Assembly: GCA_963714695.1 (NCBI GenBank)
Contig: CAVQPQ010000001.1
Span: 7,880-71,879, forward strand
Direction: 5' to 3'
Origin: an uncultured Verrucomicrobiae bacterium
GTDB taxonomy: Bacteria; Verrucomicrobiota; Verrucomicrobiia; Limisphaerales; UBA11358
DNA: 64,000 nucleotides
In this document: piece after piece, positions 6,761 to 36,870 of the stretch
Numbering within the stretch: position 1 is the first letter of the stretch
How the letters are laid out: each line of letters opens with the position of its first letter
Translations under genes and position numbers: made by a program
Notes under the pieces: generated by a model
Databases searched by the model: none
What the model was told of the DNA's origin: nothing
Seen by the model: the letters and a program-made list of their open reading frames with translations, nothing else

Positions 6761-6817
6761 GTGATTCGTGAAGCGTGAAAACGTGATTGTGCATCACGCA
6801 TCACGTTTCACGTTTCA
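6761..6817. repeat. Heptanucleotide array forming a hairpin between the luxC-like stop and the queD start
   Basis: Left arm is GTGATTC GTGAAGC GTGAAAA CGTGATT. The GTGC loop is followed by the right arm ATCACGC ATCACGT TTCACGT TTCA. The array overlaps the luxC-like stop codon at 6808-6810. Confidence 0.75.
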
Positions 6818-8268
6818 AAATCGGTCCATGTCACCAAATCGCCCAGCGCGGGCCGGCCATCGTGACGCCACGTTAGCGGCGGGTTTTGCATCCGGCCCAG
6901 CGGGCACACCCGCGTCACGCCCCAGCGCGCCAGTTGCTCCGCCAATTCGCGCGCTTTTCGTTCCGGCGCGGCGATGCCAACGGTCGAAACCTGGCCGCGC
7001 ATGCACTCGGCGTTTTGCAGCATCTCGTGCAAATCCTTCACGCCCTTCACATAAACAAACCGGTTCAGGCATGACAGTTGGAAACGCGGATCCGCTTCGT
7101 AAATCACCGTCCACGCCGTTGAATCCCGGCTGTGCCACATCAAAGTTTCCGCTCCCTCGGTGCGGGCGGCCGCGCGCACCTGGTAGAACGCCCGGCGCGA
7201 CGCGATGACCGCCGCATGTTCCGTTGCCAGCTCGCCGCGCGGCTCCGTTTGCTCGCGCCGCTCCAATTCATCCGCAAGCATTTCCGCGAATTGTTCCGGC
7301 GACACTTTGCCGCCAGACTGGACGTATATTACGTGCGGCGAAAGACAGCCCAACTGGTTCCACGCCACCACGTCATCCGCCGCGTGGGAAATGATCTGCC
7401 GGGCGCTCGAAACATGTAAAACCGCGCTGTCCACATAACCAAAACTCACGCGCTGGCCGTACCCAAGAAATCGGATTTTAACCGGCAAACGCGCGCGGAT
7501 GTCCGCCAATGTCTCGTCACTGCCCGTCGCCGTCACACAATCAGCCCCGGCAAACAACGCGGTTTCCAAATCAACTTTGCCACCGCGCCACTCGGCGATT
7601 TCCAGGCAGGCGCCCAGTTTGGGGTCGGCATCATAAAGCGAGTGGGCGAACAGCCGGGGCAAAAACGCCGCGCCGCTCGCGCATTTCACAAATTGCGCCG
7701 AACGGGTCAGCAGGCCGAGCACGATGCTCATCAACGCCGGATTCGGAACGTTGCCCGGCGCGATGTGGACGATAAATTCCGGGCCGCGCCAAAAATGACG
7801 TGGGACGTGTGACGTGGGACGTGGGGAAACTGCATCGCTTGTCACCTGACACCCGTCGCCTGTCACACTGATGGCATCGCCCAATTCCTGTTCCAACAAC
7901 GCCTGTAAATTTTCAGCTGTGAGTTGCCGGAAAAAATTGTCCAGGCCCTTTTCCAACGTGGCGCGGGAAAAAACAGGTCCCGGAGCGCCGGGCACCGTCC
8001 CGGCAACCTTCAACCCCTGGCTTTGGTTCAAGCCGAGGCGGTGCCCGGCGCTCCCCGTTTGCTCCAGGGTCAGCTTGCGGAACCGGTTTTCCGCCCGCAA
8101 CCAGTCCTCCGCCACGTCGCTCAGTGTTTTTATGAGCTGTTCCGTTGAACGGCCGGCAAGATAACGCTCGCGATTGCGCTTCAGCGTCTGGCACGCCTCC
8201 GTGATCATCGCCGGCGACAACGTCGCTTCCGGCGGCAGATCGGCGAGAAAATAATTGGGCAGGCTCAT
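6808..8268 (-). CDS. LuxC-like acyl-CoA/acyl-protein reductase
   Basis: Motif HIAPGNVPNPALMSIVLGLLTRSAQFVKCASG is typical of the LuxC family. Start chosen at the ATG at 8268, which forms an ATGA overlap with the luxE-like stop. Confidence 0.8.
   Translation of the reverse strand: MSLPNYFLADLPPEATLSPAMITEACQTLKRNRERYLAGRSTEQLIKTLSDVAEDWLRAENRFRKLTLEQTGSAGHRLGLNQSQGLKVAGTVPGAPGPVFSRATLEKGLDNFFRQLTAENLQALLEQELGDAISVTGDGCQVTSDAVSPRPTSHVPRHFWRGPEFIVHIAPGNVPNPALMSIVLGLLTRSAQFVKCASGAAFLPRLFAHSLYDADPKLGACLEIAEWRGGKVDLETALFAGADCVTATGSDETLADIRARLPVKIRFLGYGQRVSFGYVDSAVLHVSSARQIISHAADDVVAWNQLGCLSPHVIYVQSGGKVSPEQFAEMLADELERREQTEPRGELATEHAAVIASRRAFYQVRAAARTEGAETLMWHSRDSTAWTVIYEADPRFQLSCLNRFVYVKGVKDLHEMLQNAECMRGQVSTVGIAAPERKARELAEQLARWGVTRVCPLGRMQNPPLTWRHDGRPALGDLVTWTDFET
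7796..7868. repeat. Heptanucleotide arrays inside luxC-like ORF
   Basis: TGACGTG GGACGTG TGACGTG GGACGTG lies at 7796-7823. After 17 bp comes GTCACCT GACACCC GTCGCCT GTCACAC (7841-7868), which is partly complementary. Confidence 0.7.
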
Positions 8269-9539
8269 TGGATTGCGGAGTGCGGAATGTGGAGTGCGGA
8301 ATGAGCCATCAGCGAACATCCGCGCGGTTCGGCCAGGGTCGCGCGGCCAATTAATTCAAATCCGTTGCCGCGACGGATCCCCAAATCTTCCGTTTGAATG
8401 GCCATGACGGAAAACCCGTTCGCCAAATCGAACACGCGAATCAAACCGGTTTCGCCATCAGCCACCTCGCGCCCCGTCTCGGGCGAAACGATCTGGACAC
8501 GAGTCCAAGGGGGAAAATGAAAAAGACGGGTGACACATTCTGGGAGCGCCGGCGTCCCGCCGGCAAGTTCCTTTGTCGCGGTTGGAAGAATTCGCCGGCG
8601 GGGCGCCGGCGCTCCCAGGTCATACGCCTGCGAACTCAACTCGCTCATGCCGTATTCGCAGATGATGTGCGATGGCGGCACACCGAGTTTTTCGGTGATG
8701 AGTCCATGCAATTCAATTTTGGGCAGGGAACGGGATCGGCCTTTGTAACCGCCGGTTTCCATCACGCGTGACCCGGCGGGCAAATCGAAACGCAGATTTT
8801 TCTCCGCCAGAAAATCAAGCAAATGCACGAAGGAAAAGGCCGTGCCCAGAATCAATTGCGGATTGCGGATTGCGGATTGCGGATTGTTGCCCAGCGCCGC
8901 AATCGCACGGTCGAATTCCAGCGTCCACGCGCCGTCCGTTGCCAGTTTGCCGACGAACGCAGTTTCCGGCGCGCCCAGGTTTTGCCGCACGGTTTCAAAC
9001 ATGCGGACGAGTGACGAGTGTGGCGCCTGCGCTGGCGGCGGCGTCAAAATTATCAGTCCGCAATCCGCAATCCGCAATCCGCAATTCTGAAACACGTTTT
9101 CCAGGAACCAAGGCAGCAATGAAGCCTCATACAATTTCAACGACTCGAGCGAATGGAAGTGGCGGCTTGGACGTTGTTCCGTCGTACCGCTGGAATGGAA
9201 AACCGCGATGCGTTCCGCCGGCGTCAGACAGGTCAAATCCAGTTCCTTGAACGCCGATGTCGGCACGGCCGGAATGCGCGCCCAATGTTCGACAACTCCT
9301 GGCGCAAGGCCACGCGATTCGCAGATTTTCCGGTAGGCGGCGTTGGATTTAAATTGCAGCGCAAAAAGTTCGCACGCAAGCCGGTTAAAAACGTTATCGC
9401 AGGAGCCGACGCAAGGAGGCTTGTTTTTTGTTCTGCCAGTGGTAGCTGGAGAAAGACTCCTCACGTCGGCTCCTACATCGGAAAAGAAAATAATGGCCTC
9501 GCGCAAACGCGCGGCAAAGTTTGAAAGTTCGGTGATCAT
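8265..9539 (-). CDS. LuxE-like acyl-protein synthetase (adenylate-forming)
   Basis: Motifs FALQFKSNAAYRKICE, IPAVPTSAFK and VFHSSGTTEQRPSRHF. Start chosen at MITELSNF (9539). The ORF contains four repeat insertions (see findings). Confidence 0.8.
   Translation of the reverse strand: MITELSNFAARLREAIIFFSDVGADVRSLSPATTGRTKNKPPCVGSCDNVFNRLACELFALQFKSNAAYRKICESRGLAPGVVEHWARIPAVPTSAFKELDLTCLTPAERIAVFHSSGTTEQRPSRHFHSLESLKLYEASLLPWFLENVFQNCGLRIADCGLIILTPPPAQAPHSSLVRMFETVRQNLGAPETAFVGKLATDGAWTLEFDRAIAALGNNPQSAIRNPQLILGTAFSFVHLLDFLAEKNLRFDLPAGSRVMETGGYKGRSRSLPKIELHGLITEKLGVPPSHIICEYGMSELSSQAYDLGAPAPRRRILPTATKELAGGTPALPECVTRLFHFPPWTRVQIVSPETGREVADGETGLIRVFDLANGFSVMAIQTEDLGIRRGNGFELIGRATLAEPRGCSLMAHSALHIPHSAIQ
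8270..8304. repeat. Heptanucleotide array at the luxE-like 3' end
   Basis: GGATTGC GGAGTGC GGAATGT GGAGTGC GGAATGA. It encodes the C-terminal ..HSALHIPHSAIQ and starts directly beside the overlapping luxE-like stop and luxC-like start codons. Confidence 0.75.
8540..8618. repeat. Family A palindromic element (WERRRPAGE type), copy inside luxE-like ORF
   Basis: Arms are CTGGGAGCGCCGGCGTCCCGCCGGC and GCCGGCGGGGCGCCGGCGCTCCCAG. The ORF stays open and reads ..APAPRRRILPTATKELAGGTPALPE.. Confidence 0.85.
8853..8887. repeat. Heptanucleotide array (GGATTGC)n inside luxE-like ORF
   Basis: CAATTGC GGATTGC GGATTGC GGATTGC GGATTGT. Confidence 0.9.
9064..9098. repeat. Heptanucleotide array (CAATCCG)n inside luxE-like ORF, inverted partner of 8853-8887
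   Basis: CAGTCCG CAATCCG CAATCCG CAATCCG CAATTCT. It is the reverse complement of the 8853-8887 array, 176 bp away. Confidence 0.9.
9397..9477. repeat. Family C palindromic element inside luxE-like ORF (81 bp)
   Basis: Arms are GCAGGAGCCGACGCAAGGAGGC and GACTCCTCACGTCGGCTCCTACA. The element translates as ..VGADVRSLSPATTGRTKNKPPCVGS.. Confidence 0.8.
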
Positions 9540-22275: not shown

Positions 22276-24087
22276 ATGAACAATCCGAACACAGAAAATC
22301 CGCCGCCCGCCGCCCCGTCCGATTTTATCCGCGACATCGTGGAAAAACACGTCGCTGAGAAGAAATATCCGCGCATCCACACGCGTTTTCCGCCCGAACC
22401 GAACGGCTACCTGCACATCGGCCATGCCAAGAGCATCTGCCTGAACTTTGGCATCGCGCGCGAATTCGGCGGCATCTGCAACCTGCGCATGGACGACACC
22501 AACCCGGCCAAGGAAGACGTCGAATACGTGGATTCCATCATCGAAGATGTGAACTGGCTCATCAGCGCCTGGGCCGATAAAAATCTTGGCCTCAAGCCGA
22601 AAGGGAAAACGCCCGAAGCTGTCACGTCAAACGGCAAGCCGGATTTTTATCTGGGAGCAGTTACGGGAACATCCAACATCCAACATCCAACATCCAACAT
22701 CCAAGTCGAAGCGTTTTACGCCTCGGACTACTTCGACCAGATTTACGAATACGCCGTCGCGCTCATCAAGAAAGGCAAGGCCTACGTCTGCGACCTGACG
22801 CCGGACCAGACGGATGAATACCGCCGCAACGCCAAGGAAAGCCCGTTCCGCAACCGCAGCATCGAGGAAAGTCTCGACCTGTTTACGCGAATGAAGAACG
22901 GCGAGTTCCCCGATGGCACGCGCACGCTGCGCGCGAAGATTGACGTGACCGCGCCGAACATCTGGATGCGCGACCCGCTCATTTACCGCATCCGCCACGC
23001 CGAACATCATCACACCGGCGGCAAATGGTGCATTTATCCGATGTACGATTTCGCGCATTGCCTGAGCGATTATCTCGAAGGCATTACGCACAGCATTTGC
23101 ACGCTGGAATTCGAGGTGCATCGCCCGCTGTACGACTGGATATTGGAGAACCTGGATCTGCCGCGTCCCCTACCCCATCAATATGAATTCGCGCGTCTCA
23201 GCCTCACCTACACCATCATGAGCAAACGCAAGCTCATGCAGCTTGTGAACGAAAAACTCGTAACCGGCTGGGACGACCCGCGCATGCCCACCATCAGCGG
23301 CATCCGGCGGCGCGGCGTCACTGCGGAAGCCCTGCGCGCGTTTGCCTACAACATCGGCATCACCAAATACAACGGCCTCACCGACGTGGCCGTGCTGGAA
23401 TTCGCCATCCGCGAAGACCTGAACAAACGCGCCCTGCGCCGCCTCGCCGTGCTGCGCCCAATCAAGGTCATCATCACGAATTTTCCGGAAGGCAAAACCG
23501 AGGAATTGGATGCCGTCAACAACCCCGAGGATGAAAACGCGGGCAAACGGACAATTCCTTTCAGCCGCGAACTATTCATCGAGCAGGACGATTTCAAGGA
23601 AGTTGCCGTGCCGAAATATTTCCGGTTGAAACCCGGCGGCGAAGTCCGGCTGAAATACGCCTACATCATCAAATGCGACGAAGTGGTGAAGGACGCCGCC
23701 GGCAACATCACCGAGCTGCGCTGCACCGCCGATCTCGACAGCAAGAGTGGCGGAGCCACGGCGGCGCGCAAAGTTAAGGGAACAATTCATTGGGTAAGCG
23801 CCGCGCACGCCGTGGATGCCGAAGTACGCCTCTACGACCGCCTGTTCACCGAAGCCGAGCCGGAAAAAGATGGTCGCGATTTCAAGTCCGTGCTCAACCC
23901 GCACTCGCTCGAAGTGGTGACGGCCAAATGCGAGCCGAGCCTGAAAGACGTAAAACCGGAACTGCGCTATCAATTCGAGCGCCTCGCCTACTTCGCGTCG
24001 GACAAAGACACCACGCCCGGCAAGCTGGTTTTGAATCGGACGATAACGCTGAAAGACACTTGGGCGAAGGAAGCGCAGAAAGGTTAA
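22276..24087 (+). CDS. glnS: Glutamine--tRNA ligase
   Basis: Motifs [17 protein letters not shown] (HIGH) and VMSKRK-type TIMSKRKL. It is collinear with E. coli GlnRS as I recall it, apart from an insertion after DVNWL. Confidence 0.95.
22668..22705. repeat. Heptanucleotide array (ATCCAAC)n inside glnS ORF
   Basis: Four exact ATCCAAC units plus ATCCAAG. It translates as [12 protein letters not shown]. Confidence 0.9.
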
Positions 24088-32292: not shown

Positions 32293-35200
32293 TTACGGTG
32301 TGGCGGAACGGTAAAACTGGACCGGATGGCTGCCGGCATTCGTATCGGTGAATTGCCATGCGCCCGCGGGTCCGGCCACGTTGGTGCAGATGGGTTGCCA
32401 GATGACCGGCGGGGTCAGATTGGTGGCTGCGAAGACACGGCTGCCGATGTTCGGAGCGGTCAGCAAATTGAGCGTCACGCTGCCGTCCGGATTGAAAACG
32501 GACTTTGAAATGAGCGGCGCGGTGGCCACGCTCAACGTGACCAAGCTGCTGGTGAAGCTGCCGTAAGGACCGGTGACGATGACGGAATAATTACCGCTAT
32601 TGTTCATGGTGATATTGTTCAGGGTCAGCGTGGGATAGCTGGCAAACAGGCTCACTTTACAGATACGGTTGTTGAGTGTGTCTGCGATCAACAGATTGCC
32701 GGAGGCGTCCGTTTCCACGCCTCCAGTGAGATTAAAACTCGCATTGGTGATGGCGCCATTGCCCGCTACGGTGGTGATCACGCCGTTCGTGTCCACTTTA
32801 CGAATGCAGTTGTTGAGCCAATCCGCAATGAACAAATTGCCGAAGGGGTCCAATACGACGCCTGTCGGCAGATTTAGCATGGCATTGGTGGCCGCGCCAC
32901 CGTCACCGGAATAACCGCGTGTGCCGTTGCCTGCAACGGCGGTGATGATACCGTTGACATCCACTTTACGGATGCAGTTATTGCCTGTATCTGCAAAAAA
33001 CAGATTGCCGGAGATGTCAAACACGAGGTTTTCAGGATTATGCAGGATGGCATTGGTGGCCGCGCCACCGTTGCCGGAATAACCGCCTGTACCATTGCCC
33101 GCAACACTTGTAATAATGCCACTGCTGTCCACTTTGCGGATACAGTTGTTGAAATAGTCCCCAATGAACAGATTGCCGAAGGCATCCAAGGCCACACCGA
33201 AAGGACCGTGCAGTCCGGCATTAGTCGCCGGGCCACCATCACCGAAATAGCCGCCTGAACCATTGCCTGCCATAGTGGTGATCATGCCGTTGGTATTTAT
33301 TTTGCGGATGCGGTTGTTGGCGTAATCCCCAATGAACAGGTTCCCGTTGGCGTCCACGGTTACACCGTAGGGTGCGTTCAGACTGGCATTGGTGGCCGCG
33401 CCGCCGTCACCGGAAAAGCCGTTTATGCCGTTGCCTGCCACAGTGGTGATGATGCCATTGACGCTCAATTTGCGGATCCGATTATTGGATGCATCCGCGA
33501 TGAACAGGTTGCCGAAGGCATCCCAGGCCATACCCAAGGGGCTGTTCAGCATGGCATTGGTGGCCGGACCGTCGTCGCCGGAAAAGCCGGGACTGCCGTT
33601 GCCTGCCACGGTGGTCATGCCGTATGGCAGATTAGTGCCGTTCAACTGCCATTGATAGGTGAACGGGCCGGTATCGAAAATTTCTACATTGAATGTCGCC
33701 TTGCCGCCCATCATCACCAATTGATTGGCCGGCTCAACAGACACTAATTCGCCTCTCAAATGAGCCACACTGCTGGTCACACTGCCCCACATATTGGTGA
33801 TGATAACCGTATAATCACCCACGTCATTGGTGGCGGTGGCGTTCAGGAGCAGGTTGGTTGTCGTCGAACCAGAAAGGTTGCCATCATCGGCCAGATTCGC
33901 CCCGTTTTTCTGCCATTGAAAATGAAAAGGCACCGTGCCAATGACGGAAACACCAAATGAGGCCGGCGTCCCATATCGGACTGCAAGATTTTGAGGTTGA
34001 GACACAATGATCGGCGGCGACGAGGCCACAGTCAACGTGACAATACTGCTGGTAAAGCTGCCGTAGGGAGTGGTGATGATTACGGAATAATTGCCGGCGT
34101 CGCGCGCGGTGACGTTGTTCAGGGCAAGGGTGGGATAACTGGCAAACAATGCCACTTTCCGGACGCGGTTGTTGCTGGTGTCCGCAATAAACAGGTTGCC
34201 GAAAGTGTCCACCGCCACACCCAATGGTTGATACAGGCTGGTATTGGTGGCTGCGCCACCGTCACTGGAATAACCGGAACTGCCATTGCCCGCCACGGTC
34301 GTAATCATGCCATCAATACTTACTTTGCGGATGCGGCTGTTGATGTCGTCCGCGATGAACAGGTTGCCGGAAGCATCCAAGGCCACACCGTATGGAAAAT
34401 ACAGCTTGGCATTGGTGGCCGCGCCACCGTCGCCGGAATAGCCGTTTATGCCGTTGCCCGCCACAGTGGTGATGATGCCGTTGATGTCCACTTTCCGAAC
34501 GCGAAAGTTTAACGAGTCTGAAATGAACAAATTGCCGAAGGCATCCAAGGCCACACCAAAGGGATGATTCAGGCTGGCATTGGTGGCTGTCCCACCGTCG
34601 CCGGAATAACTGCCTGTGCCATTACCCGCTACTGTGTTAATCATGCCATTGGTGTCCATTTTGCGAACCCGGTTATTTAAGAAATCCGCAATGTACAGGT
34701 TGCCTAAATTGTCAAATGTTATGCCGTAGGGGTGGTTCAGGCTGGCATTGGTGGCGGGGCCGCCATCGCCGGAATAACTATTTGTACCGTTGCCGGCCAC
34801 AGTCGTAATGATGCCATTGGTGTCCACTTTGCGAATCCTATTGTTGTTATAGTCTGCAATGAAAAGATTGCCGGAAGGATCCGTAACGGTGCTTCCGGAG
34901 GAAGACAGGCTGGCATTGGTTGCAGGGCCGCCATCGCCGGAATAACTGTTTGTCCCGTTGCCCGCCACGGTGGTAATCACGCCGTTGACACTTACTTTGC
35001 GAATGCGATTGCTTGAGCCTGTAATGAACAAATTGCCGGAGATGTCCAAGAACACACTGAAGGGATGCACGGAGGCATTGGTAGCGGGACCGCCGTCGCC
35101 GGAAAAAGCATTTGTGCCGTTGCCGGCCACGGTGGTAATGATGCCATCCGGCAAATTGGTGCCATTCAACTGCCATTGAAAGGTGAACGGGCCGGCGCCG

Positions 35201-36870
35201 GCAACAGCTACAGTAAATGTCGCCGTGCCTCCCGCCATCACGGTTTGATCGGCCGGCTCGGCCGGCATCATGACCACCAAGCTGGCCGCGCTGCTGGTCA
35301 CACTGCCCCACACATTGGTGATGATGACCGTGTAACCGCCCGCGTCATTGGTGGCGGCGGCGGTCACAAACAGGTTGTTCGTCGCCGAACCGGAAAGGTT
35401 GCCGTCATCAGTCAGATTCACCCCGTTTTTTTGCCATTGAAAATGAAACGGCGTGGTGCCGACAACGGAGACGCCAAACGAGGCCGGCGCTCCACCCAGC
35501 ACGGCAAGGCTTTGAGGTTGGGACACAATGATGGGCGGTGATAAAACCGTCAACGTGACATTGCTGCTGGTCACGCTGCCGTCGGGACCGGTGATGACGA
35601 TGGAATAATTTCCTTCGTTGTATGGACCCACATTGTTCAGGGTGAGCGTGGGGTTACTGGCAAACAACACCACTTCCCGGACGCGTTCGTTGCCCAAATC
35701 CGCCAGGAACAGGTTGCCGGTGCTGTCCAACGCCACGCCGGAAGGCAGATTCAGGGTGGCATTGGTGGCCATTCCGCCGTCGCCGGAATAACCCCAGTTG
35801 TCATTGCCCGCCACGGTCGTGATGATGCCGAAAGAGTCCACTTTGCGGATGCGATCGTTCGATGAGTCCGCAAAAAACAAATTGCCGAAGGCATCCACAG
35901 CCACGCCATAAGGCGCGTCCAGGCAGGCGTTGGTGGCCAGTCCGCCATCGCCGGAATAATCCAGGCTGCCGTTGCCGGCCACAGTCGTAATGATGCCATT
36001 GGTGTCCACTTTGCGAATGCGATTATTGTCCATGTCCGCAATGAACAGATTGCCGGTGGCATCCACAGCCACACCATAAGGCGCATTCAGGCTGGCGTTG
36101 GTGGCCGGGCCACCATCGCCGGAATAGCTTCCGTAAACAGCGGGGCCTTTGCCGGCCACCGTGGTGATGATGCCGTTGGTGTCCACTTTGCGGATGCGAT
36201 TGTTGTCCGTATCCGCAATAAACAGATTGCCGGAGCCGTCCACGTCCACGGCTTCAACGTAAGCCAGGCTGGCGCTGGTGGCCGGGCCACCGTCGCCGGA
36301 ATAGCCGGGACTGCCATTGCCGGCCACGGTCGTGATGATGCCGTTGGTGTCCACCTTGCGAACGCGGTTGTTGTTCCAATCCGCGATGAAGAGGTTGCCT
36401 GAGGCGTCCAGCGCCACCCCGGCAGGACGGATGGTGGCATTGGTGGCAGCGACGCCATCGCCGGAGTAACCGGTGCTGCCGTTGCCCGCGACCGTCGTGA
36501 TGATCCCGTTGGTGGTTACCTTGCGGATGCGATTGTTGACAAAGTCGGCAATGAACAGGTTGCCGGCGGCGTCAAAAGCCGCACCCTCAGGATAATACAG
36601 GCTGGCATTGGTGGCCGGTCCGCCGTCGCCGGAATAACCGCCACTGCCATTGCCGGCCACGGTGGTGATAATGCCATTGGGCAGATTGGTGCCATTGAAT
36701 TGCCATTGGCAGGTAAACGGGCCGTCACCGGAAACCGCCACGCTCAACTTCGTCATGCTTCCGGCCATCACTGTCTGGTTGGTCGGCTGGGTGGTGATGG
36801 TTTGTGCGGACAAAATCGTCGCCGCAAAGGCCGGTGCCGCTGCCGCCCAAAAAAACATTTTCAGTTTCAT
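32293..36870 (-). CDS. Giant secreted NHL-repeat protein with interspersed Ig-like domains
   Basis: 1525 aa with a signal peptide. More than 25 units of IITTVAGNGxxGYSGDGGPATNAxLxxPxGVAxDxxGNLFIADxxNNRIRKV are grouped in four propeller blocks. Each block is followed by an Ig-like segment (FxWQxNGxNL). Confidence 0.9.
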   Translation of the reverse strand: MKLKMFFWAAAAPAFAATILSAQTITTQPTNQTVMAGSMTKLSVAVSGDGPFTCQWQFNGTNLPNGIITTVAGNGSGGYSGDGGPATNASLYYPEGAAFDAAGNLFIADFVNNRIRKVTTNGIITTVAGNGSTGYSGDGVAATNATIRPAGVALDASGNLFIADWNNNRVRKVDTNGIITTVAGNGSPGYSGDGGPATSASLAYVEAVDVDGSGNLFIADTDNNRIRKVDTNGIITTVAGKGPAVYGSYSGDGGPATNASLNAPYGVAVDATGNLFIADMDNNRIRKVDTNGIITTVAGNGSLDYSGDGGLATNACLDAPYGVAVDAFGNLFFADSSNDRIRKVDSFGIITTVAGNDNWGYSGDGGMATNATLNLPSGVALDSTGNLFLADLGNERVREVVLFASNPTLTLNNVGPYNEGNYSIVITGPDGSVTSSNVTLTVLSPPIIVSQPQSLAVLGGAPASFGVSVVGTTPFHFQWQKNGVNLTDDGNLSGSATNNLFVTAAATNDAGGYTVIITNVWGSVTSSAASLVVMMPAEPADQTVMAGGTATFTVAVAGAGPFTFQWQLNGTNLPDGIITTVAGNGTNAFSGDGGPATNASVHPFSVFLDISGNLFITGSSNRIRKVSVNGVITTVAGNGTNSYSGDGGPATNASLSSSGSTVTDPSGNLFIADYNNNRIRKVDTNGIITTVAGNGTNSYSGDGGPATNASLNHPYGITFDNLGNLYIADFLNNRVRKMDTNGMINTVAGNGTGSYSGDGGTATNASLNHPFGVALDAFGNLFISDSLNFRVRKVDINGIITTVAGNGINGYSGDGGAATNAKLYFPYGVALDASGNLFIADDINSRIRKVSIDGMITTVAGNGSSGYSSDGGAATNTSLYQPLGVAVDTFGNLFIADTSNNRVRKVALFASYPTLALNNVTARDAGNYSVIITTPYGSFTSSIVTLTVASSPPIIVSQPQNLAVRYGTPASFGVSVIGTVPFHFQWQKNGANLADDGNLSGSTTTNLLLNATATNDVGDYTVIITNMWGSVTSSVAHLRGELVSVEPANQLVMMGGKATFNVEIFDTGPFTYQWQLNGTNLPYGMTTVAGNGSPGFSGDDGPATNAMLNSPLGMAWDAFGNLFIADASNNRIRKLSVNGIITTVAGNGINGFSGDGGAATNASLNAPYGVTVDANGNLFIGDYANNRIRKINTNGMITTMAGNGSGGYFGDGGPATNAGLHGPFGVALDAFGNLFIGDYFNNCIRKVDSSGIITSVAGNGTGGYSGNGGAATNAILHNPENLVFDISGNLFFADTGNNCIRKVDVNGIITAVAGNGTRGYSGDGGAATNAMLNLPTGVVLDPFGNLFIADWLNNCIRKVDTNGVITTVAGNGAITNASFNLTGGVETDASGNLLIADTLNNRICKVSLFASYPTLTLNNITMNNSGNYSVIVTGPYGSFTSSLVTLSVATAPLISKSVFNPDGSVTLNLLTAPNIGSRVFAATNLTPPVIWQPICTNVAGPAGAWQFTDTNAGSHPVQFYRSATP

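Follow-up and report, generated by a model that had tools for sequence, protein, structure and literature searches.

Dispersed repeats of three families within a conserved luxE-like gene of an uncultured Verrucomicrobiae bacterium

Background

The luxE-like gene described here lies in a 64,000-nt stretch of DNA (hereafter the window) from an uncultured Verrucomicrobiae bacterium of the order Limisphaerales (forward-strand positions 7,880 to 71,879 of contig CAVQPQ010000001.1, assembly GCA_963714695.1; coordinates without a contig prefix refer to the window), and about 57 of its codons derive from three dispersed repeat families. Repeats that are translated as part of a host protein have precedents. 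Ogata and colleagues are said to have described, in 2000, Rickettsia palindromic elements (RPEs) as selfish sequences that sit in frame within protein genes and are tolerated on the protein surface. RPEs are the classical case of in-frame intragenic palindromes, and are cited as such in a paper on repetitive extragenic palindromes (REPs) of the GTAG and CGTC types that lie in frame within conserved genes, some open reading frames (ORFs) having been hit twice (Di Nocera, De Gregorio & Rocco 2013, PMC3733652). In that work most intragenic GTAG REPs came from Opitutus terrae (Verrucomicrobia), the GTAG tag defines a REP superfamily, and the hairpins or dimers encode 20-30 residues that stand out as additions against shorter homologues; the authors propose that they form linkers or loops. 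One of the luxE inserts, which we call family C, resembles these in carrying a GTAG...CTAC tag and in lying in frame inside a conserved gene. The differences are that luxE holds two REP families plus three heptamer arrays, that its sites hold different elements across the order, and that the other palindrome, family A, is without GTAG. RPEs are further removed: their sequences and hosts are unrelated, they have no association with a REP-associated tyrosine transposase (RAYT), and they are not combined with tandem heptamers.

REPIN-RAYT systems, reportedly the subject of work by Nunvar and colleagues in 2010, are the closest match to family A. They were also described by Bertels & Rainey (2011, PMC3116915). 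Like them, family A is made up of REP doublets in inverted orientation, each of about 76 nt; there are 74 copies, and a RAYT-type gene has family A copies on either side. Classical REPINs, however, are almost wholly extragenic, whereas about a quarter of the family A copies are inside called ORFs, among them the one translated in luxE. For the heptamer arrays, the nearest likeness is the short tandemly repeated repetitive (STRR) heptanucleotide sequences of cyanobacteria, reportedly described by Mazel and colleagues in 1990. STRR sequences also occur inside the RNase P RNA gene of cyanobacteria. Both are dispersed short arrays of several 7-nt units, some of them within functional genes at variable positions, but the phylum and the units differ, and the arrays described here have about four units, often pair into hairpins, and are mostly found within ORFs, where all three frames are used.

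In Photobacterium LuxE, a cysteine a few residues from the C-terminus is the acylation site. The gene in the window resembles its counterpart in the LuxC-LuxE reductase of luminous bacteria (7xc6) in encoding a LuxE-family adenylating enzyme with a C-terminal ...GCSL cysteine and in having luxC adjacent; it differs in being a distant member that is about 57 residues longer because of repeats. In-frame REPs are already published. Less familiar at this locus are the turnover of 7-base arrays at fixed sites, the presence of three repeat classes in one small enzyme, the repeated use of the same four loops throughout the order, and the concerted evolution, in frame, of arrays whose unit is not a triplet.

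Five repeat segments in luxE

The evidence presented below makes it very probable that this is a conserved luxE with four permissive surface loops and a tail, in which the genome's own repeat DNA lodged and was repeatedly replaced. The gene and its five repeat segments are as follows.

8265-9539, minus strand: luxE-like acyl-protein synthetase coding sequence, 424 codons plus stop (424 aa), identified by Pfam, PDB, fold and presence in relatives
9397-9477, no strand assigned: family C hairpin (GTAG-type REP), variable site 1; arms 9401-9422 and 9453-9474; residues 21-48, translated VGADVRSLSPATTGRTKNKPPCVGSC
9054-9086, minus strand: heptamer array, variable site 2; GCGGATT on the coding strand; residues about 152-162, CGLRIADCGL
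8854-8886, minus strand: heptamer array, site 3; (ATTGCGG)x4.6 at 8855-8886, AATCCGC on the coding strand; residues 218-229, NPQSAIRNPQ
8540-8618, no strand assigned: family A REPIN-like hairpin, variable site 4; arms 8540-8570 and 8588-8618, 90% complementary; residues 308-334, LGAPAPRRRILPTATKELAGGTPALP
8270-8303, minus strand: degenerate heptamer array forming the C-terminal tail; residues 412-424, HSALHIPHSAIQ; directly upstream of the luxC start codon

The first-pass annotation of this DNA had proposed a luxE-like ORF of 424 codons at 8265-9539 that stays open despite four insertions from three repeat families, with a fifth array supplying the C-terminal codons. All five stretches exist. 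The arms of both palindromes it named (8540-8618 and 9397-9477) were found, as was the degenerate terminal array; one of its two internal heptamer arrays is at 8854-8886 and the other at 9054-9086, so that the interval it gave for the latter, 9064-9098, was about 10 nt too far. The site-2 array is the reverse complement of the site-3 array (33 nt, 97% complementary, 167 nt apart).

All five segments are members of dispersed families, for which shuffled-sequence controls returned 0 matches. Genome-wide counts lead to a chance expectation of about 0.11 elements per kb, or 0.14 per gene of luxE size; the Poisson probability of at least five elements is then about 4e-7 per gene and about 0.002 across the 4036 called genes, small enough that the clustering in luxE must be regarded as real. 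The earlier impression of an unusual density thus holds against chance, but less so within the genome, where 17-18 genes carry at least three repeats and one 927-aa gene has six arrays. The gene is an unusually dense yet not unique case of a known tolerance for repeat DNA, and not a new kind of element.

Identity of the gene and constraint upon it

The ATG at 9539 agrees with the N-terminus of homologues (MxxELSxFAARL). The ORF scores 57.8 bits against Pfam LuxE (PF04443), above the curated cut-off of 24.9, and a family profile search matches the solved LuxE chain 7xc6_E (E=1e-14), with the C-terminal ...RGCSLM aligned to ...KGCSLS of that chain. The equivalog model for Vibrio/Photobacterium LuxE (NCBIfam NF052244) is not reached, at 49.4 bits against a cut-off of 550; judged by these profile scores the product is a distant member of the LuxE family and neither the equivalog nor the LuxE of luminescence. 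A P-loop, HSSGTT, is encoded at about 9194-9180, and the codon of the conserved C-terminal cysteine (Cys408) is at 8318-8316, followed by 16 residues here versus 5 in most homologues.

The density of repeats invites the question of whether this is a pseudogene in decay that has kept an open frame by chance. Five repeat insertions within 1.3 kb would suit such a history, and since the repeats carry no stop codons the open frame alone is weak evidence against it. What argues against it far more strongly is conservation: thousands of homologues align over the full length at 60-97% identity, and an alignment of 142 sequences has 49 invariant columns, including the SSGTT loop (S116, S117 and T119), ETGGYK (E261-K266), EYGM (E295-M298) and RGCS (R406, G407, C408 and S409). 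Of 61 related genomes, 59 have a homologue, as do all 41 of the high-quality ones; the ORF has no frameshifts or stops; luxC is coupled to it through an ATGA overlap; and the modelled ANL fold is confident outside the inserts. We regard decay as exceedingly improbable and reject it on the conservation of the gene and its motifs and its presence in relatives, which support a real gene under purifying selection. By homology, it is predicted to be a working luxE-type gene of a Limisphaerales-like Verrucomicrobium from soil, its product serving as acyl-protein synthetase in a fatty-acid reductase made up of LuxC and LuxE.

A first structural model, built from 25 close sequences, was poor (predicted local distance difference test, pLDDT, 59), and was redone with the 142-sequence alignment. 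The resulting AlphaFold model has a mean pLDDT of 83.3 and a predicted template modelling score (pTM) of 0.84, and Foldseek relates it to PaaK1 (2y27, E=6e-12), a PaaK-like ANL adenylate-forming fold. Its lowest-confidence blocks are residues 21-40 (family C), 311-330 (family A) and 401-424 (the C-terminal stretch including the tail array); pLDDT is 51-59 in the family C insert, 48-52 in family A and 40-43 in the tail. Sites 2 and 3 are modelled as helix-to-strand connectors with pLDDT of 74-84. Of the two readings offered at first pass, selection to keep the gene open and exceptional tolerance of insertions, the former is borne out by the conservation just described, whereas the tolerance is a property of four loops and the tail only, not of the gene as a whole.

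Length variation and turnover among orthologs

Length classes were taken from about 229 homologues, and turnover was compared in the DNA of 30 orthologs. The repeat segments coincide with the variable parts of the homologue alignments and are not conserved portions of the family. Site 1 ranges from 5 to 130 aa, site 2 falls into classes of 15, 22 and 40 aa, site 4 ranges from 12 to 67 aa, and the tail after Cys408 from 5 to 32 aa, with about 150 of the 229 homologues having no tail and ending in CSLMxx. Site 3 is the exception among the insertions proposed initially: the segment is 20-24 aa in 211 of 228 homologues, a nearly fixed length, and the array there therefore replaces sequence and adds none. 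Subtraction of the repeats had been estimated to leave about 365 aa, and this figure fits well, as one ortholog with no recognisable repeat at any site (L016) is 367 aa long, the modal length of homologues is 360-379 aa, and the Vibrio-type LuxE 7xc6_E has 373 aa.

What occupies these sites changes from ortholog to ortholog. The site-2 arrays share one register and differ in their units, which are GATTGCG in this genome, L029 and L006, GATTTAC in L002, L010 and L026, GATTGCC in L007, and AATTCAA in L005, L008, L013 and L018; L003, L004 and L012 have mixed arrays in which neighbouring units share a variant, and more distant orthologs have no array at this site. Site 3 contains CAATCCG, CGTCACC, AGACGCC, CCCCGCG, CGGCAAT or no repeat. 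The REPIN of site 4 recurs in several close homologues; heptamer hairpins stand there in no fewer than six orthologs, and elsewhere a single array or a different palindrome takes its place. Site 1 is occupied by an array or by a hairpin of one of three families, or is empty. By parsimony, sites 2 and 3 each require 14 or more changes over 30 tips.

Two close relatives with 87% identity, P0008 and P0026, have site-2 arrays that are unequal in length by exactly three GATTTAC units (21 nt), between flanks that are identical. The hairpin family at site 1 and the tail are likewise not the same in the two, but they share the site-4 REPIN, and their C-terminal halves are nearly identical. Taken together, the mixed arrays and this clean three-unit change are the pattern that slippage, with homogenisation, would be predicted to produce under selection for frame.

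Across the genus and the order, dozens of genomes have GATTGCG, GATTTAC and AATTCAA at many loci, and the dominant heptamer unit of a genome predicts its luxE unit only weakly.

Repeat families across the genome

The genome comprises 5.16 Mb, in which period-7 arrays were counted either by Tandem Repeats Finder (TRF) or as exact arrays of at least three units. TRF reports 426 period-7 arrays, the majority spanning 26-32 nt with about 4 units, and the exact count is 109 for period 7 versus 22 for period 6 and 1 for period 8. The arrays are built of many units, AATCCGC being the commonest, and so present the STRR-like picture of many dispersed short tandem arrays with several 7-nt units. Exact arrays lie inside called ORFs in 87 of 107 cases (81%, an approximate fraction) versus a coding density of 84%; arrays do not avoid genes. 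Neighbouring arrays no more than 400 nt apart make up 108 pairs; in 46 of these the two arrays have the same unit in inverted orientation, and in 1 the same unit in direct orientation. Random pairing predicts about 3.5% of each, and it follows from the excess of inverted pairs that many arrays are hairpin arms. The loops of these inverted pairs are mostly 10-42 nt (for example C3:284158-284231 and C6:694956-695029), and in this company the site-2 and site-3 arrays of luxE form an unusually wide pair. The 21 ATTGCGG arrays in the genome have unrelated flanks and a uniform length of 26-36 nt.

About half of the hairpins formed by inverted arrays fall inside called genes. Arrays of (ATTGCGG)n were also seen in many metatranscriptome contigs (runs X22-X24), sometimes two per contig in direct or inverted orientation; on the strength of these contigs, heptamer arrays are commonly transcribed in these soil and peat communities.

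Family A comprises the 74 paired hairpins, or inverted doublets, noted above, with a modal length of 76 nt; their arms start CTGGGAGCGCC and the terminal GTAG tag is absent. Only 27% of copies lie in called ORFs, a partial avoidance of genes. Matches to the Y1 transposase family number 21 in the genome. For one of them (C4:426929-427552) the score on the REP-associated tyrosine transposase model NF047646 is 85.3 bits, above the cut-off of 80, and family A copies lie on both sides of it, which makes family A a REP/REPIN family with a cognate RAYT. The surrounding region (C4:426700-427700, outside the window) has the arrangement of a REPtron, a RAYT gene between its own REPs. This REPtron is the likely source of the family A insert in luxE.

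Family C has about 76 copies in the genome, with ends GTAGGAGCCGACG...GGCTCCTAC (GTAG...CTAC) and a GTAG-tagged consensus of GTAGGAGCCGACGTGAGGAGGCT...loop...GAGCCTCGTTACCTCGGCTCCTAC; in the luxE copy the two ends read GCAG and CTAC. Of a multi-copy IS200/IS605 transposase, the copy at C1:143065 has seven family C arms around it, and no single-copy RAYT could be assigned to the family. At C1:142100-144000, a tandem cluster of family C-like units with a period of about 100 nt encloses one copy of such a transposase gene. The usual 3' arm, GAGCCTCGTTACCTCGGCTCCTAC, is an inexact complement of the 5' arm, some positions pairing by G-T/G-U wobble on one strand only, and this wobble pairing points to a putative strand-specific hairpin of RNA or single-stranded DNA.

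The open frame and population variation

The composition of the repeats goes a long way towards explaining the open frame. Family A is stop-free in 6/6 frames, as is the AATCCGC unit (the site-2 interval has a single stop, which lies on the non-coding strand and in the flank, not in the repeat); of the three coding-strand frames, the tail array leaves all open and family C two. Because the repeats are nearly stop-free, a net length divisible by three is the only hard requirement for insertion, and alleles of the wrong length are lost because the gene is needed. The frame is indeed preserved, as had been noted, but this is less unusual than it seemed, since sequences open in nearly all frames are filtered by length only, and no broken alleles were seen.

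A near-identical public contig (L031) has all five repeats unchanged, together with 18 substitutions and a compensated -1/+1 frameshift beside family A. The frameshift is probably an assembly error, given that the frame of the window agrees with homologues. In the same ENA contig metG is split into two gene calls (L031:1431-2989), and this assembly probably carries indel errors. Among the contigs of four metagenomes, one independent contig spans the family A element intact, and no array-length variants were seen, though short contigs break at arrays. Out-of-frame changes in repeat number, of the kind that mark contingency loci, were found neither in L031 nor in the metagenome contigs, the sole change observed being the in-frame one of three units; phase variation was rejected on this account. 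Elsewhere, the ortholog L029 has frameshifts outside its arrays that resemble long-read errors, and L018 has a gap of Ns within an array.

Origin and placement of the repeats

Two of the inserts are REP-type hairpins, family A being a REPIN with a cognate RAYT in the genome and family C a GTAG-tagged REP; the other three are 7-base arrays, which we propose grow, shrink and homogenise via replication slippage. An event would survive if its net length were a multiple of three and the loop were not needed by the enzyme, and all other insertion or slippage events would be purged by selection on a strongly conserved gene. We infer that slippage and selection, rather than targeted insertion, explain the placement of the repeats.

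Several points weigh against this account. The gene tree is star-like, so that gains and losses, including those bounded by parsimony, are not reliably countable, and the in-gene fractions depend on a rough codon-usage gene caller. Four metatranscriptomes gave no usable luxE signal, only the arrays finding matches, and those from many loci. The inserts are presumed near-neutral for enzyme function from their low modelled pLDDT and their variability, and the tail array, which begins 4 residues after Cys408, may affect function; in Vibrio LuxE, the arm that is lengthened here by the tail array carries the acyl group to LuxC. Moreover, purely local slippage leaves unexplained both the recurrence of a few units at many unrelated loci in dozens of genomes and the narrow length, 4-5 units, of arrays with unrelated flanks. 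Some spreading or templating process for the heptamer vocabulary is possible.

The obvious counterpart to slippage and selection is that placement is driven by DNA: the sites would be hot spots for REPIN transposition into hairpin-prone DNA and for a process that writes heptamer arrays of about 30 nt, with protein tolerance being only a part of the explanation. We consider this unlikely, while noting that much of the genome-wide evidence is compatible with it, namely the uniform ATTGCGG arrays with unrelated flanks, the great excess of inverted over direct same-unit pairs, and the same units at many loci and in many genomes (a reversed-pattern control gave 0 matches except for 1 and 3, in two genomes, for AATTCAA). 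At site 4, different element families begin within 0-2 codons of one point after ...QAYD, but such shared boundaries are the last and first conserved residues and are also expected from a purely selective filter. P0008 and P0026 differ in their site-1 hairpin family and tail despite nearly identical C-terminal halves, as rewriting would allow; their clean three-unit difference and the mixed arrays with adjacent variant units nevertheless fit ordinary slippage. No enzyme is linked to the heptamer arrays, and the site-2 unit is often unlike the dominant unit of its genome, AATTCAA being found only in luxE in G015 and G028, which favours inheritance over rewriting. It is tempting to speculate further that the arrays of about 30 nt, often paired as hairpins, are an undescribed micro-element of Limisphaerales-type Verrucomicrobiota that is actively propagating or templated. 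This we hold to be slightly less probable still. If it were true, a small shared 7-nt vocabulary would be written into chromosomes, coding loops included, and luxE would record the successive overwriting of a few sites and not the passive slippage of old insertions.

It is also conceivable that the repeats are kept for a function in the operon, either as a 33-bp mRNA stem acting in RNase III processing or translation control, or as a frameshift on/off switch of the contingency-locus type. The stem between sites 2 and 3 would be very stable (-129.5 kcal/mol for an RNA fold of 261 nt, z -6.8), yet complementarity of its arms is confined to this genome and L006, with partial complementarity in L024 and L029, unrelated units being combined in most orthologs, and a conserved portion of the enzyme is encoded by the 167 nt that separate the arms. 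A conserved RNA stem was rejected because the complementarity is lost in orthologs. As for a switch, a slip of 7 nt does shift the frame, but arrays of 4-5 units are short for efficient switching, the only length difference found, that between P0008 and P0026, is in frame, and neither L031 nor the metagenome contigs vary in length. Such a role for the repeats is thus very unlikely in our estimation.

Under our preferred explanation of slippage and selection, luxE establishes no new mechanism and is better viewed as a compact test, set by nature, of the amount of foreign or slippery DNA that a conserved enzyme can absorb. The ortholog comparison maps the dispensable loops of the LuxE fold, and dozens of orthologs with other elements or none provide natural with/without variants for assessing the neutrality of peptides encoded by REPs and microsatellites. 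There is also a practical warning for annotation: length differences of 50-60 residues among these proteins are repeat DNA and not extra domains.

The adjacent luxC and other repeats

Directly downstream of luxE is its putative partner in the operon:

6808-8268, minus strand: luxC-like acyl-CoA reductase coding sequence (Pfam PF05893, 5.5e-65)

The probable luxC start is the ATG at 8268, which overlaps the luxE stop (ATGA); the luxE and luxC gene calls likewise overlap by 4 nt on L031, and this is why the start is placed there. The luxC-like gene has an in-frame heptamer array of its own, (GACGTGG)x4.1 at 7797-7825 (TRF), and the repeat load therefore spans the whole operon.

Other repeats were noted in passing. 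A sequence present in about 20 copies, TAAAGGGGTCAGTCCAAATAATTTATAAT, flanks two weaker Y1-transposase-like ORFs (C3:478782-479813 and C1:6986-7089, the latter just upstream of the window start) and may be a third REP family or a terminal inverted repeat family with its own transposase. Further along the window, 22668-22704 is an (AACATCC)x5.3 array, and inverted AACATCC pairs occur elsewhere in the genome. Long tandem arrays of 168-nt (and 345-nt) repeats with 72-75% identity extend over 32790-36680, which is probably the gene of a large repeat-domain protein.

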